From: an uncultured Bifidobacterium sp.
GTDB taxonomy: Bacteria > Actinomycetota > Acidimicrobiia > Acidimicrobiales > Ilumatobacteraceae
Length of the DNA: 64,000 bases
Direction: 5' to 3'
NCBI GenBank assembly: GCA_964614655.1
Contig: CAZTPF010000007.1
Span: 17,819 to 81,818 of the forward strand
The notes below the pieces were generated by a model. That model was not told the origin of the DNA. It ran no database searches and was given only the letters and a program-made list of their open reading frames with translations. The translations under genes were made by a program, and so were the position numbers. This document shows, piece after piece, positions 3,727-33,787 of this stretch (positions within the stretch are counted from its first letter, which is position 1; the number at the start of each line of letters is the position of its first letter).

Positions 3727-4266
3727 TCACCGCTTGGCCTTCTTCGGGGCCGGCTTCTTCTTGGGTGACGACTTCTTGGCCTTCTTGGCCGGTTTGGCCT
3801 TGTGATCGGTCACGGTGAATCCGTGGTGCGCGATCTCCAGTTCTTCGATCGGGAAATCGTCGTTGGAGATCGAGAAATCCGGACCACTCCACGACACCGG
3901 AAAGGCTTCCTGAAGTGTCCAGGTTCGCAACCTTTGGCCATCGGCGCTGACGAGTGTGATGGCAACGGTCGTGCGCTTCAGTTTGTTGCCGTTCTTCTCG
4001 AAGGCGCCGGCCGACGAACCGTCGATCCAGACGAGAAACCCGTTGTCTTCCGTGATTCCGCGTTTCAGGCGGACGTTGTCGAACGTGAAGCGCCCGGGCA
4101 GTTTGTGGGTGTGGAAGTTCTGTCCGCCCTCCACGACTTCTTCGACTTCGACGGTGACCGACAGCCCTGATGCCTCGCTGAACTGTCCGAGGGGACGTCC
4201 GTCGACCTCGACCATGAAGGTGGCCGAGGTGGGGCTGAAGTCTCGGTAGGCGTCGAACTTGGCCAT
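3727..4266 (-). CDS. Phage/CIS tail tube protein paralog (T4 gp19 / Afp5-like) with Lys/Ala/Pro-rich C-terminal tail
   Basis: 179 aa. FMVEVDGRPLGQFSEASGLSVTVEVEEVVEGGQNFHTHKLPGRFTFDNVRLKRGI...WTLQEAFPVSWSGPDFSISNDDFPIEELEIAHHGF parallels the tube gene at 4944-5378. The C-terminus is HKAKPAKKAKKSSPKKKPAPKKAKR. Confidence 0.87.
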   Translation of the reverse strand: MAKFDAYRDFSPTSATFMVEVDGRPLGQFSEASGLSVTVEVEEVVEGGQNFHTHKLPGRFTFDNVRLKRGITEDNGFLVWIDGSSAGAFEKNGNKLKRTTVAITLVSADGQRLRTWTLQEAFPVSWSGPDFSISNDDFPIEELEIAHHGFTVTDHKAKPAKKAKKSSPKKKPAPKKAKR

Positions 4267-4273
4267 GGCGAAC

Positions 4274-4453
4274 TCAGGCAGTCAGCAATTTCTTGGCCTC
4301 GTCGAGGGCCCGCCGGTTGAGCGCAGCCACCCGCTCCACGAGGTTCACGCGGTCGGCGTGCTGAAGGTCGAGTAGCCGATCGAGATCCCAATGGATGTGA
4401 TAGGCGAGATAGGCGATCTCGTCCCACAGTGCGTCCTCGGGATACAGCTCCAT
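4274..4453 (-). CDS. Small conserved CIS-associated protein (DUF6760-like), 59 aa, absent from ORF track
   Basis: Manual translation: MELYPEDALWDEIAYLAYHIHWDLDRLLDLQHADRVNLVERVAALNRRALDEAKKLLTA. The ATG (4451-4453) overlaps the upstream TGA (4453-4455) as ATGA. The stop is 7 nt before the next tube gene. The YP-x-D-x-LW-x-E-x-A-x-x-AYH-x-HW pattern matches small proteins I recall from actinobacterial CIS loci. Confidence 0.65.
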   Translation of the reverse strand: MELYPEDALWDEIAYLAYHIHWDLDRLLDLQHADRVNLVERVAALNRRALDEAKKLLTA

Positions 4454-4944
4454 CAGTTGTCTCGGTGGACCTCTTCGATCACCGATCCTCCGCGCCGACG
4501 GCCAGTGGCGATTTGAACGTCGTCGTCATCGTCGTCCTCGTCGAACGCTTCCTCGAGCTCGACGATGTCGTCCACCTCGTCGAGCTCGGCGGCCGAGCTT
4601 CCGGCGATCGCCTGGTTCGCCTCGTCGAGGAAAGCCTGGACATCGGCGGGGCTCCCGAAGTTGATCACTCCGTAGAGGTCCTGTAGGAACGCCAGGTCGG
4701 CGGCGAACAGATTCTCGATCTCGCGGGGAGTGACCGCCGACAGAGTTCCGAGTTCGGTCACCACTCGAGCCAGGACGATGATCGTCAAGTACGGATCGTC
4801 CGCACTCTGCACGCGCGGATCCCGCAACGGCTCGATCTCGTCGCGAGCCGTTGCGAGTCGCATGACGCCACGGCGATGCACGGTCCCGTCGGGACCGAGG
4901 TAGCCGCGCGGCAGAGTGAAGGCGAACTCCGTCTTGAGTGCCAT
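4453..4944 (-). CDS. Phage tail assembly protein-like (CIS chaperone position), 163 aa
   Basis: Internal ATG at 4942-4944 of tracked ORF 4453..5295, overlapping the tube stop as ATGA. Sequence is MALKTEFAFTLPRGYLGPDGTVHRRGVMRLATARDEIEPLRDPRVQSADDPYLTIIVLARVV..., followed by an acidic tail DEVDDIVELEEAFDEDDDDDD. It resembles proteins annotated as phage tail assembly protein in actinobacterial CIS clusters. Confidence 0.75.
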   Translation of the reverse strand: MALKTEFAFTLPRGYLGPDGTVHRRGVMRLATARDEIEPLRDPRVQSADDPYLTIIVLARVVTELGTLSAVTPREIENLFAADLAFLQDLYGVINFGSPADVQAFLDEANQAIAGSSAAELDEVDDIVELEEAFDEDDDDDDVQIATGRRRGGSVIEEVHRDN

Positions 4945-29808: not shown

Positions 29809-31710
29809 TCACCCGTCGATCGAGTTGAGGAAGTCGACGACCTCTTGCCGGTCGATCGTGCGCTTCATGGGTGGCATGGCGGCCAGGAGATGTCGTCGAT
29901 AGCCGGCGGTGGCGAGGCGCGGATCGAAGACGGCAACGACACCGCGATCTGTTGTCGACCTGATGAGGCGACCGGCCGCCTGGGCGAGCAGCGTCGCCGC
30001 TCGTGGAAGATCGATGTCTCGAAACGCCCGATCACCGACTCGTTCCCGACGAGCCGAGAGAAGTGGGTCGTCGGGCCGAGGAAACGGAATGCGGTCGATC
30101 GTGACGAGAGACAGCGTGCGACCGGGGATGTCGATTCCCTGGAAGAAGCCGGCGGTGGCGAAGAGGCACGAGTTCTCGTCGGCGACGAAGGCTTCGACGA
30201 GCCGGGACTTCTGCGACTGGTCCCGTTGCGACATGACCGTCACGTCGAGGATCGGGCGCAGGGCGTCGACGGCGGCGTCCATGGCCCGGTAGCTCGTGAA
30301 GAGGGCCAACGTTCGTCCTCGTGCGGCGGTGATCAGTCGAAAGAGCTCGTCGTTGACCGCACTCTGGAAGGCGGCACCGTTCGGATTCGGAAAGTTCGAC
30401 GGGCAATACAGGAGAGAGTTGGCCGGGTAGTCGAAGGGGCTTCCGACGTCGAGCGCATCGTACGTGTCGGTCTCGAGACCGATTCGTTCGGGGAGATTCT
30501 GGGGGATCGTCGCACTGGTGAGAACGGCGGTGCGTCGCGACCAGGCGGCGTTCGACAGGACCGGTCCGACGTCGAGCGGTGCGATGTCGAGTCGGAGGGA
30601 ACCCTCGGCTCCTTGCACGAAGGGGACACGAGTGGAGTCGATGGCCAGTGCGAGATCGAGATCGTCGGCGAGTCGAGTGGAGAGTTGCTGGGCGCGCAGT
30701 CGCCTCTGGTTGGCGTCCTCGTCGGACGTCTCGACTTTGCGTAAGGCGTCGAGGACGTCCCCGACGACCCGGCGCGCGTCGAGAAGTAGGTCGACGAGGT
30801 CGTCGGGTAGCGGAACGGGAAGGCGCCGATCGGAGTGCGAACCGAGGCGTCGCTCGAGTTCGTCACCGAGCGCGTCGACGGCGGTATGGAGGGCCGAATC
30901 GTCGACGATTCGCGAGACGGCGGAACCGAGGCGATGAAGACGAGAGCGCGAGAAAGACACGGCGACCGAATCGCTGATGATGTCTTCGAGTCCGTGGGCT
31001 TCGTCGACGACGACGATGTCGTGCTCGGCGAGGATCGCCCCGTCGGCCGCCACGTCGAGTCCGTACAGATGAGTGTTCACCACGACGATGTCGGCTTCCG
31101 ACGCCCGCAGTCGAGCCAGTTCGGCGAAACACGTTCCTCCGAGCGGGCAGCGGCGGGCGCCAGGACACTCGTCGGACCCGACCGTGACGGCACTCTCGGT
31201 GTCGCGTCCGATGCCGAACGGAAGATCGGCCAAGTCGCCGGTCTCGTGACGGTCGGACCACTCCTTGACCTTGGCGACTTCGCGTCGGAGACGATCGGTC
31301 GTTCCCTCGAGCTGCATCTGCTCGGGGCCCTGGCGTGACAGTGTCTCTTCGAGGCGCTGTCGACACACGTAGTTGCTGCGTCCTTTCAGGACGGCCCATT
31401 CGAGTTCTCGGCCGAGGGCGCGAGCGACCGTGTCGGCCACCAGAGGAAGGTCCTTGTGCGCCAATTGATCCTGCAGCGCTTTCGTCGCCGTCGTGACGAC
31501 GGCCTTGCGCCCCGAGGCGACGACCGGAACCAGATATCCGAGAGTCTTGCCGGTGCCGGTTCCGGCCTGAACGACGAGATGGCGGCCGGTTGCGACCGCC
31601 GAATCGACGGCTTCGGCCATCGCTCGCTGTCCGGGGCGATCCTCGGTCGATCCGAGAGCCTCGGTCGCGATGTCGAGCAGATCGCGTGTCGAGAGGGGGC
31701 GGGGCGGCAC
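29809..31710 (-). CDS. dinG: ATP-dependent DinG/Rad3-like helicase
   Basis: VVQAGTGTGKTLGYLVP Walker A, the DEAH-like VVDEAHGLED, and a C-terminal helicase motif TSATIP.../GRLIRS. Confidence 0.85.
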   Translation of the reverse strand: MPPRPLSTRDLLDIATEALGSTEDRPGQRAMAEAVDSAVATGRHLVVQAGTGTGKTLGYLVPVVASGRKAVVTTATKALQDQLAHKDLPLVADTVARALGRELEWAVLKGRSNYVCRQRLEETLSRQGPEQMQLEGTTDRLRREVAKVKEWSDRHETGDLADLPFGIGRDTESAVTVGSDECPGARRCPLGGTCFAELARLRASEADIVVVNTHLYGLDVAADGAILAEHDIVVVDEAHGLEDIISDSVAVSFSRSRLHRLGSAVSRIVDDSALHTAVDALGDELERRLGSHSDRRLPVPLPDDLVDLLLDARRVVGDVLDALRKVETSDEDANQRRLRAQQLSTRLADDLDLALAIDSTRVPFVQGAEGSLRLDIAPLDVGPVLSNAAWSRRTAVLTSATIPQNLPERIGLETDTYDALDVGSPFDYPANSLLYCPSNFPNPNGAAFQSAVNDELFRLITAARGRTLALFTSYRAMDAAVDALRPILDVTVMSQRDQSQKSRLVEAFVADENSCLFATAGFFQGIDIPGRTLSLVTIDRIPFPRPDDPLLSARRERVGDRAFRDIDLPRAATLLAQAAGRLIRSTTDRGVVAVFDPRLATAGYRRHLLAAMPPMKRTIDRQEVVDFLNSIDG

Positions 31711-31725
31711 GTCTCGACCGTACCG

Positions 31726-32382
31726 TCAGGCGGTGCGAGCCAAGGCGATGGCGGCGTCGAGGTCGTCGGCGTCGAATTCGGGCCACGTGCGGTCGGTGTA
31801 GTACGTCGGCGCGCCGTTGGCCTGCCAGAGCAAGAAGTTGGAGACTCGGTGTTCTCCCGAGGTTCTCACCATCACGTCGACCATCGGCATGTCGGGGAGA
31901 TACATGCCAGCCGAGAGCGTGTCGACGGTCGTGGGTCGAGCCGAGCGAAGAGCTCGTCGACCGGCCTCGACGATTTCGGCCCGGCTTCCGTAGTCGAACG
32001 CGACGGTCAGAGTCATCTTGCGATTGTGTCTGGTGTCGGAGATCGCCTTCTCGATCGCCCGTTGCACGAAGACCGGAGTCCGCGCCGACGGATCATCGAA
32101 GGGGCGACCGATCCACTGGACTCTGACGCCGAGTTCGTTCAATTCGGCGACCCGTCCGAAGAGTCGACGATGCAGTCCGAGGATGTGGCGCACCTCGCGG
32201 CGTGGTCGGATCCAGTTCTCGGTCGAGAACCCGAAGACCGTGAGCCAGTCGACGTCGCGGGCGACGGCGGCTCGCACGACATCGGCGAGGTTCTCCTCGC
32301 CGGCCGTGTGGCCGGCAGTGCGGGGCAGGTGCTGACGCTGCGCCCAGCGGCCGTTTCCGTCCATGATGCAGGCCACGTGCAC
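31726..32382 (-). CDS. uppS: cis-prenyltransferase (undecaprenyl-diphosphate synthase family), catalytic-type but lacking the C-terminal RxG motif
   Basis: The GTG start gives HVACIMDGNGRWA, then FGFSTENWIRP, and RTSGEHRVSNFLLWQ. It ends ..AAIALARTA, with no RRFGG-type tail (see finding). Confidence 0.85.
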   Translation of the reverse strand: MHVACIMDGNGRWAQRQHLPRTAGHTAGEENLADVVRAAVARDVDWLTVFGFSTENWIRPRREVRHILGLHRRLFGRVAELNELGVRVQWIGRPFDDPSARTPVFVQRAIEKAISDTRHNRKMTLTVAFDYGSRAEIVEAGRRALRSARPTTVDTLSAGMYLPDMPMVDVMVRTSGEHRVSNFLLWQANGAPTYYTDRTWPEFDADDLDAAIALARTA

Positions 32383-32423
32383 GTGAGCGAGGGTAGCGGG
32401 CGCGTTTCGGTCACAATGGCTCC

Positions 32424-33017
32424 GTGGTGCTCGAGTCCTCTTTGCCGGCGGCGCTTCGACGCGGGATGCGTCGTCTCGCTCGCCGAGCCAAGGGTGAGGG
32501 CAGTTCTCGCTCGCTTCACGTCGTGGTGTGCGGGGGGACTTGCGAGGAGTGGTCGCGCCGAAGTGACGAACACTGGAACCAGTGGGCGGCCGAGATCGCC
32601 GCGGCGGCCGCGGGCGAAGGAGTGGGGTCGGTGACGGTGTATCCCCTCACAGGATCGACCGCGAGCTCAGGCGCGATTCGCCGGTGGAGCATCGCCGGCG
32701 TCGCCGTGACCGCGTGCGAGGAGGCCGACGGACGTCGGCGAATGGCCGAGGTGATCGATTCGTGGCCCTCGGGCCTGGCCATGACCGAAGAGACGTTGGG
32801 CCGCGCCCTCGTCGGCCCGGGCGGCGACCCCGACGTCGTCGCGGTGGTCGGTGCAACCGGTCGCCTTCCCACCGCGCTCGTGTGGGAGCTCGCCTACGCC
32901 GAGTTGGTCGACGTCACCACCGACTGGGAGTCCTTCTCGGGACGAGAACTGAGCGCGGTCATCGACGAATTCCGTACGAGGAATCGGCGCTTCGGCGGCG
33001 TCGACGAAGCACCGTGA
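32424..33017 (+). CDS. Degenerate cis-prenyltransferase-fold paralog that retains the C-terminal RxG motif
   Basis: LHVVVCGGTCEEWS stands in place of HVAxIMDGNGRWA. The C-terminus LVWELAYAELVDVTTDWESFSGRELSAVIDEFRTRNRRFGG aligns with the UppS C-terminus LLWQIAYAELYF..RERRFGG. The stop overlaps the recO GTG. An alternative start is ATG 32466. Confidence 0.65.
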   Translation: MVLESSLPAALRRGMRRLARRAKGEGSSRSLHVVVCGGTCEEWSRRSDEHWNQWAAEIAAAAAGEGVGSVTVYPLTGSTASSGAIRRWSIAGVAVTACEEADGRRRMAEVIDSWPSGLAMTEETLGRALVGPGGDPDVVAVVGATGRLPTALVWELAYAELVDVTTDWESFSGRELSAVIDEFRTRNRRFGGVDEAP

Positions 33018-33787
33018 CGTCTCGGCTCTATCGCGACACGGGGATCGTGCTCCGTACCTATCGACTGGGTGAAGCCGATCGGATCGTGGTGTTCCTCACC
33101 GAGAACAACGGCAAAGTGCGGGCGGTTGCGAAGGGAATTCGCAAGACGCGGTCGAAGTTCGGCGGTCGGCTCGAACCGCTGTCTCTCGTGAACGTCCAGT
33201 TCCACCGCGGCTCGTCGCTGGACGTGGTGAGCCAAGTGGAGACGGTCGATGCTTCGACGTCGGCCTACGGCGATCTCGACGTGATGACCGAGGCCAGTGC
33301 GGTGCTGGAAGTCGTCGACCAGCTGATTCCCGATCGCGAACCGGTTCCTCAGATCTTTCGCATGTTGTCCGGCGTACGGCGAACCTTGCTGGAGAGGCCG
33401 TCGCCGCTCGTCGTCCCGGCTTTCATCTGGAAGCTCCTCGCCGCCGAGGGAGTTCGTCCCGAGCTCGACCGCTGTGTGGGTTGCGGTGGAGGCGAGGACG
33501 AGGTCGGGGGCTTCGTGGCCTTCGATTCGACGATGGGAGGAGTGCAGTGTCGACGCTGTCGAACCGGAGTCGCCGTCAGCGATCGGGCGGTCGCCCTTCT
33601 GCGTGACATGTTGGGAGGCCGCTTGTCGATGGTTCTCGACGCCGCTCACGATCCGGCTGGACAGAGGCTCGACGATCCGACGGCGTCGGAAGTCTCCGAT
33701 CTCGCCACCCGCGCCTTCGAATCCCATGTCGAGCGCCGCCTGCGATCGGTCGGGATCTTCGAGCGTCACGACGACCGCGGCTCCTGA
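33014..33787 (+). CDS. recO: DNA repair protein RecO
   Basis: GTG 33014 gives VTSRLYRDTGIVLRTYRLGEADRIVVFLTENNGKVRAVAKGIRK.., and the Cys cluster CVGCGG...QCRRC. Conserved era/recO/uppS neighbourhood. Confidence 0.9.
   Translation: MTSRLYRDTGIVLRTYRLGEADRIVVFLTENNGKVRAVAKGIRKTRSKFGGRLEPLSLVNVQFHRGSSLDVVSQVETVDASTSAYGDLDVMTEASAVLEVVDQLIPDREPVPQIFRMLSGVRRTLLERPSPLVVPAFIWKLLAAEGVRPELDRCVGCGGGEDEVGGFVAFDSTMGGVQCRRCRTGVAVSDRAVALLRDMLGGRLSMVLDAAHDPAGQRLDDPTASEVSDLATRAFESHVERRLRSVGIFERHDDRGS

Follow-up and report, generated by a model that had tools for sequence, protein, structure and literature searches.

The stretch of DNA analysed here, which we call the window, comprises 64,000 nucleotides of contig CAZTPF010000007.1 (positions 17,819 to 81,818 of the forward strand; assembly GCA_964614655.1), from an uncultured actinobacterium of the family Ilumatobacteraceae. 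It holds two divergent genes, A and B, both related to UppS, the bacterial undecaprenyl diphosphate synthase (UPPS). Gene A keeps the catalytic motifs of this enzyme and ends before the C-terminal RxG motif, while gene B has lost the catalytic residues and keeps the RxG end, and the two probably encode the complementary subunits of a single cis-prenyltransferase (cis-PT). An earlier, sequence-only reading of the window had proposed such a heteromer, and the open reading frames, coordinates and motifs on which it drew were all found again. The two genes and the region between them are as follows (aa, amino acids; AF2, AlphaFold2):

31726..32382, minus strand: gene A, predicted catalytic cis-prenyltransferase subunit, UppS-like, 218 aa (open reading frame, motifs, PF01255, TIGR00055)
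32383..32423, no strand assigned: divergent A/B intergenic region of 41 bp, presumed site of both promoters (sequence)
32424..33017, plus strand: gene B, predicted non-catalytic accessory subunit, a degenerate UppS paralog, 197 aa (open reading frame, PF01255, alignment, AF2)

Gene A reads MHVACIMDGNGRWA at its start, then FSTENW, RTSGEHRVSNFLLWQ and, at its end, AAIALARTA, followed by the stop codon. It is intact from D8 (D26 of E. coli) through RTSGEHRVSNF, aligns with positions 1-209 of the 219 of the Pfam profile PF01255 (E = 9e-60, 202 bits, cut-off 27) and passes the NCBIfam uppS model TIGR00055 with 181 bits (cut-off 109.55). Both A and B stay under the cut-offs of all NCBIfam PRK equivalog models, the best value for A being 201 against 348 bits. 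The relatives of A in the Protein Data Bank (PDB) are 7cpn (5e-49), Rv2361c of 2vg2 (9e-44) and the E. coli UPPS (8e-38), and its identity to full-length UppS proteins of the Acidimicrobiia is 40-50%. An E. coli UPPS sequence served as alignment reference and tree outgroup, and its C-terminal half agrees with the PDB alignment.

The claim that A stops exactly where RxG would begin is borne out by the spacing: the TGA comes 15 residues past WPEF, and the RxG block starts exactly 16 residues past WPxF in 25 of 25 full-length relatives. A canonical UPPS carries the catalytic motifs and the C-terminal RxG on one polypeptide, and neither A nor B does so. Aligned with full-length relatives, A reads WQANGAP at the interface where W[EQ]xAYxEL is expected, so that AYxE has become NGAP, and it carries a 5-residue insertion, RPFDDPSARTP. 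Among its orthologs the interface motif is W-Q-x-x-G-x-x-x, in which the change from Tyr to Gly is invariant and the Glu is mostly gone. The AF2 model of A (predicted local distance difference test score, pLDDT, 80.6; predicted template modelling score, pTM, 0.81) is a complete UPPS domain terminating in its last helix (residues 205-217), with no flexible tail. At the other end, the alignment gives A no N-terminal extension in the source genus; in other genera, A has an extension of ~10 aa and an ATG further upstream.

Gene B, which was described by the sequence-only reading as a divergent paralog about 40 bp away without catalytic residues, lies 41 bp from A and shows in alignment just these losses. 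It reads HVVVCGGTCEEWS, GATGRLPTALVWELAYAELVDV and FRTRNRRFGGVDEAP in this order and matches only positions 146-219 of PF01255 (E = 3e-8, 33.8 bits, cut-off 27). The catalytic Asp of MDGNGRW is lost (GGxxxxW), FSxENW is deleted together with ~50 residues of the tunnel-forming region, and GxxxRLPxxL stands for RTxGExRxSNF. What B retains is the segment of beta-E, linker and beta-F at the interface (PDVVAVVG...LVWELAYAELV) and the C-terminal RNRRFGG, and among its orthologs PDLVVVLG, LVWELAY[SA]E[LI]V and R-x-R-R-F-G-G show no or almost no variation. The conservation of B follows the same lines, with a mean top-residue frequency of 0.68 over residues 136-193 as against 0.18 over residues 1-27, and outside the interface and tail its identity drifts to ~30%. 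In structural terms this conserved part covers beta-E, the linker, beta-F and the final helices, the elements that have been described as the dimer interface of these enzymes (PMC7573591).

The B profile matches the bacterial UPPS structure 1f75 with E = 4e-19. The AF2 model of B, built on a 21-sequence alignment, has a mean pLDDT of 80.8 and a pTM of 0.77, with disorder confined to residues 1-27, and Foldseek places it with UPPS structures at probability 1.00 and TM-scores (template modelling) of 0.46-0.54, as expected for a domain with a deletion. Thus, gene B is confidently predicted to fold as a reduced UPPS domain. We found no transmembrane-like segment in B, the maximum Kyte-Doolittle hydropathy over 19 residues being 1.32, within the beta-sheet core. 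The first 27 residues (32424-32504) are basic and poorly conserved, have low pLDDT and include a predicted helix at residues 10-22; in relatives, the N-terminus has a motif like N-G-x-V-F-x-R-R-R. This end of the protein may serve in membrane association or in regulation. The protein collection contained no exact match to A or to B.

A complete enzyme encoded elsewhere would undermine the proposed split, and the sequence-only reading had for this reason pointed to a full-length uppS as the gene to look for. A six-frame PF01255 search of the whole source assembly (2.2 Mb, 86 contigs, 91.6% complete) found A and B and no other match, and the closed genomes of pair-bearing relatives likewise have no full-length copy. 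The source genome also encodes users of the lipid carrier, namely two phospho-sugar transferases of the MraY/WecA family and one BacA/UppP. Because these genes are present, the cell must use a polyprenyl-phosphate carrier and needs a working synthase.

A survey of related genomes for the paired genes had also been suggested, and it extends the pair well beyond the source genome. In a sample of 121 Ilumatobacteraceae genomes from 51 genera, the A/B pair is found in about 33 genera, co-inherited and almost always adjacent and divergent, while 16 genera have one full-length gene and 2 have no match. Only a single genome, 85% complete, has A without detectable B, and three show B only; in one of these, B lies at the edge of a contig. 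The one-contig genomes G079, G116, G132, G059, G122 and G066 each hold exactly the A/B pair and no canonical full-length uppS. Within the source genus, both genes are present in 21 of 24 other species, a single gene in 2 fragmentary assemblies, and the pair plus a spurious sub-threshold match in one further species. In these relatives A spans the profile from position 1 to about 209, and B, on the opposite strand and a few hundred bp off, from about 115 or 147 to 219. Elsewhere in the order, each of 16 further families has one uppS locus, which is full-length (1-219) in 13 of these families and broken up or truncated at the end of a contig in the remaining 3. At the level of the class, B-like full-length matches (E below 1e-38) occur in family f1 only, and the split is limited to a part of this family.

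The complementary losses recur from species to species. A pattern scan with one genome per species returned 80 loci, in about 75 of which A is adjacent to and divergent from B. With all loci pooled, an RxG after WPxF is present in 0 of 102 A orthologs, and a C-terminal RRFG[GSN] in 107 of 107 B orthologs. The tail of the A orthologs past WPxF measures 9-28 residues (median 15), their stop codons are TGA (69), TAA (18) and TAG (9), and their last residues are unrelated. Since stops are mixed and ends unrelated, the truncation of A is old and maintained, and not a sequencing error shared between genomes. Judged from these counts, the recurrence of complementary losses in A and B over so many species is far beyond chance.

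Several loci depart from the common layout. In genus g43, the closed genome G066 (L128, L129) has A and B ~1 Mb apart, at 3.30 Mb and 4.36 Mb, with B still upstream of recO, and in a second genome of this genus, G110, they lie on separate contigs. Between 0.6 and 2 kb of extra sequence separate A from B at L093 (A 1097-1951, B 4028-4630), L042 and L089. Two genera of the family, g55 and g63 (L120, L121, L122, L134), carry just one full-length uppS, whose tail reads RRKG and whose neighbours are neither recO nor the helicase. Its identity to A is only 36-41% and it stands on a long branch of its own; displacement or replacement of the uppS may lie behind this. In genus g59 (G082:C17:170859-171483) a full-length uppS is read in two adjacent frames, matching profile positions 11-98 and 99-219, which is a frameshift or assembly error and not the A/B arrangement. 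A split reaching across the class was considered and rejected, as the two PF01255 matches found in other orders belong to unlinked paralogs, each complete and with its own RxG, one of the uppS type and one of a more divergent full-length type. One of two such cis-prenyltransferase paralogs has five in-frame stops in a genome of roughly 1 Mb from family f35 of the same class (G235:C1:445163-445830); it appears to have been pseudogenised in a streamlined lineage. Both paralogs seem to be retained in the rest of the genus members sampled.

All the predictions of the heteromer proposal that could be tested at the level of sequence held, and we put at roughly three in four the probability that A and B together make up an obligate heteromeric cis-prenyltransferase, the sole synthase of the polyprenyl-diphosphate (undecaprenyl-type) carrier in this organism. 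In the homodimeric enzymes, as in the human heteromer of DHDDS and NgBR, one protomer extends its RxG over the interface, and this motif assists in binding isopentenyl diphosphate (IPP) in the site of the other; in the human enzyme, it is the NgBR tail that crosses into the DHDDS active site, and the kcat of the heteromer is ~400-fold above that of the DHDDS homodimer (PMC7573591). By the same logic, A would supply catalysis, having the binding sites for the allylic substrate and IPP as well as the Mg-binding Asp and the hydrophobic tunnel, and B, catalytically dead and with its tunnel deleted, would pair with it through the usual UPPS-type interface and insert its RRFGG into the active site of A, giving one complete site per A/B dimer. 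In an A2 homodimer both sites would lack a tail, and in a B2 homodimer the tails would have no site to complete. The exchange of the interface Tyr for Gly in A may disfavour A2 and favour A/B. From the interface retained in B we infer the physical pairing, and with it a tail acting in trans and an activity that depends on both proteins. All known heteromeric enzymes differ from homodimers in the control of chain length, and the product may therefore differ from C55.

The competing account that deserves most attention is that A is a self-sufficient homodimeric synthase adapted to having no RxG tail, with B acting in some other role, as a regulator or chaperone of A, as a sensor of the polyprenyl or IPP pool, or in a function of the recO operon. 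Some observations speak for this account and weigh against an obligate heteromer. Every catalytic residue that acts in cis is present in A; its stem branch is long (1.1-2.5 substitutions per site), which could reflect adaptation to working without the tail, and its lineage-specific changes, the RPFDDPSARTP insertion and WQxxGxx, could compensate for what is missing. The genes are unlinked in genus g43, so that linkage is not obligatory. DHDDS homodimers keep a weak but measurable activity, so that A alone might suffice at a low level, and yeast Nus1 has N for R in the motif, so that the Arg is not universally required (both PMC7573591). A self-sufficient A would nevertheless leave unexplained why the conservation of B peaks at the dimer interface and at R-x-R-R-F-G-G in 107 of 107 orthologs, and why the loss of the tail in A is perfectly coupled to its retention in B over ~100 species. 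Moreover, mutations of RxG have been strongly deleterious in every cis-PT tested, crippling E. coli UPPS, the Giardia cis-PT and the Methanosarcina MaUPPS-B (bioRxiv 10.1101/139675). We hold this account to be unlikely.

That B is only the decaying pseudogene of an ancestral uppS, left behind once A had taken over as a replacement copy, would fit its position in the ancestral slot, the loss of its catalytic motifs and ~50 aa, and its evolution at 2-4 times the rate of A. Its frame is nevertheless open in all 107 species of ~33 genera, and its fold is predicted with confidence. The ratio of nonsynonymous to synonymous substitution (dN/dS, pairwise Nei-Gojobori) over 17 species pairs is 0.05-0.34 for B (median about 0.14), well under 1, against 0.02-0.15 for A and 0.03-0.17 for recO in the same pairs. 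Among 21 genus members, B has 25 invariant columns, RRFGG included, and the C-terminal motif would not stay perfect in a relic whose synonymous sites saturate (dS up to 1.5). By these measures B is under purifying selection and a working gene, and we consider decay very improbable. An artefact of assembly, binning or gene calling, in which A lost its tail by a frameshift or chimera, or in which a full-length uppS lies in the unassembled 8%, is scarcely credible. The source assembly is indeed incomplete and in 86 pieces, and the codons past the TGA of A read R-Y-G near the real RxG spacing. Yet the same truncation recurs in 102 orthologs from independent assemblies, with all three stop codons and with unrelated tails, and five of the one-contig genomes (G079, G116, G132, G059, G122) hold only the pair. 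A frameshift error hiding an RxG on A, which the sequence-only reading had itself named as a way to be wrong, is thus excluded by ~100 species with different stops and different tails.

How the pair of A and B may have arisen can be approached from gene order. In single-gene genera of the family and in other families of the order, a leftward helicase is followed by rightward uppS, recO and glyS, and in pair-bearing genomes the leftward helicase and A are followed by rightward B, recO and glyS. By this synteny, B has inherited the place of the ancestral uppS, and A is an additional copy, inverted and inserted between B and the helicase. In trees, A and B are each monophyletic (100/100 for both) and both sit on long stems; B groups with the full-length UppS of the family (87/84), and the free tree places A next to UppS from a different family within the order (L008, support 99/93). 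By an approximately unbiased (AU) test, a sister relation of A and B is not rejected (p = 0.56). On these trees A may have come either from an inverted duplication in situ or from a transfer within the order. Descent of A from the second, divergent paralog type was also tried and rejected, with an identity of only 28-34% as compared with 40-50% to the uppS type. In a RecO tree, a weak single-gene marker, the pair label is strongly clustered and yet requires at least 3 changes; the monophyly of A and of B argues better for a single origin of the pair than this tree does.

Within the Ilumatobacteraceae, then, the resident uppS upstream of recO would have degenerated into B, and a second, inverted and fast-evolving copy would have become A. 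We think it rather likely, though with less assurance than the heteromer by itself, that a clade of at least 33 genera, among them freshwater acIV and marine Ilumatobacter relatives, depends for its essential carrier on an obligate two-subunit enzyme that evolved independently of the eukaryotic and archaeal DHDDS/NgBR systems, the uppS beside recO having turned into a tail-donating pseudo-enzyme and a divergent copy, possibly a xenolog from within the order, having become the sole catalytic subunit.

The start codons of A and B face apart across the 41 bp that separate them. A TACCCT box lies 7 nt upstream of the GTG start of A, and CACAAT lies 6 nt upstream of the GTG start of B. The box of A, within 32383-32400, is kept as TACCCT, TACCGT or TACGGT throughout the genus (loci L015-L039), 7-8 nt upstream of its GTG or ATG, and the start of A immediately precedes the first beta-strand (HVACIMDG). 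This spacing suggests leaderless or near-leaderless transcripts. A scan of the locus for sigma-70 consensus promoters and terminators found nothing, so both promoters are placed here by inference. On either side of the pair lie:

33017..33787, plus strand: recO (PF11967, PF02565), whose start overlaps the stop codon of B by one base
29809..31710, minus strand: DinG-like helicase (PF13307, PF00270, PF06733), 15 bp downstream of A on the same strand

Downstream of B, recO is followed by the glycyl-tRNA synthetase gene (glyS). On the other side, in the window at 31708-31728 (minus strand), the frame reads R-Y-G-R-D after the TGA of A and then meets the GTG start of the helicase, in the same frame as A. 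Read-through of the TGA would produce an R-x-G displaced by one residue from its canonical place, together with a fusion of A to the helicase. Rescue of RxG on A by frameshift or read-through was considered and rejected: the RYG after the stop is common only to the nearest relative (L034), an R.G within 8 codons past the stop occurs in 8 of 97 loci, estimated to be about chance for the base composition, and stop codons are mixed, with further stops downstream.

A heteromer in this clade would bear on a wider discussion. Full-text literature searches found heteromeric cis-PTs for eukaryotes and Euryarchaeota only, and no paper linking Ilumatobacter with undecaprenyl synthesis; in agreement with this, a 2026 review states that all characterised bacterial enzymes of the family are homomeric. 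The impression of the sequence-only reading that the arrangement is not established in bacteria is therefore supported. Reviews up to 2026 treat heteromeric cis-prenyltransferases as eukaryotic and euryarchaeal, and argue from that distribution about the origin of the eukaryotic enzyme. If the A/B heteromer is real, the split would be a repeatable evolutionary outcome for a homodimer whose tail acts in trans, and nature would have provided a clear example of duplicates degenerating in complementary ways. The heteromer would also offer a soluble, two-gene, recently diverged system in which to dissect activation by RxG, with full-length sister enzymes as controls, and the closed large genomes in the clade make the heteromer experimentally testable. 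For annotation, B is easily labelled 'uppS' or 'hypothetical', and A is labelled a complete UppS. Finally, such an enzyme would be relevant to UPPS-targeted inhibitors and to cell-envelope biosynthesis in a very abundant freshwater actinobacterial group.

The closest parallel in function is the eukaryotic system, human DHDDS/NgBR (NUS1) and yeast Rer2/Srt1 with Nus1, and the sequence-only reading had seen in A and B the same division of labour. The complementary losses uphold this comparison. Like A, the eukaryotic catalytic subunits have intact motifs and no functional RxG tail, and like B, NgBR/Nus1 is a pseudo-cis-PT without catalytic residues, its tunnel collapsed, that keeps the interface and the C-terminal RxG and completes the site of its partner (PMC7573591). 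The parallel does not extend to descent. The B profile matches NUS1 chains with E = 3e-3 to 4e-3, against 4e-19 for bacterial UPPS, and B nests among the Acidimicrobiales UppS in the tree, so that by profile and tree B is not an NgBR ortholog and is an independently degenerated bacterial UppS. Details differ from one system to the other: B is without the N-terminal transmembrane domain of eukaryotic NgBR/Nus1; and A is without the C-terminal helix-turn-helix extension of DHDDS, on which grounds a heterotetramer is not expected. In contrast to the eukaryotic genes, A and B are adjacent and divergent on a bacterial chromosome, and their expected product is a bacterial cell-wall carrier lipid and not a long-chain dolichol.

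The archaeal heteromers, MA3723/MA4402 and MM_0618/MM_1083 of Methanosarcina and Af1219/Af0707 of Archaeoglobus fulgidus, resemble A and B in being prokaryotic, soluble and encoded by two genes, an RxG-less catalytic protein and a partner without a transmembrane domain. They make a medium-chain carrier lipid, as is also expected for A and B. However, the archaeal accessory subunits have been described as NgBR/Nus1-like and are presumed to be connected with the eukaryotic system (PMC12998183), whereas B is a recent derivative of a bacterial uppS that is restricted to a part of one actinobacterial family. With the canonical homodimeric UPPS and decaprenyl diphosphate synthases (E. coli UppS, M. 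luteus 1F75, M. tuberculosis Rv2361c, T. fusca 7CPN), A and B share the fold, PF01255, the interface elements and the genomic slot beside recO. In those enzymes each protomer has both the catalytic site and RxG, giving two sites per dimer, whereas in A and B the two are split and one site per dimer is expected.

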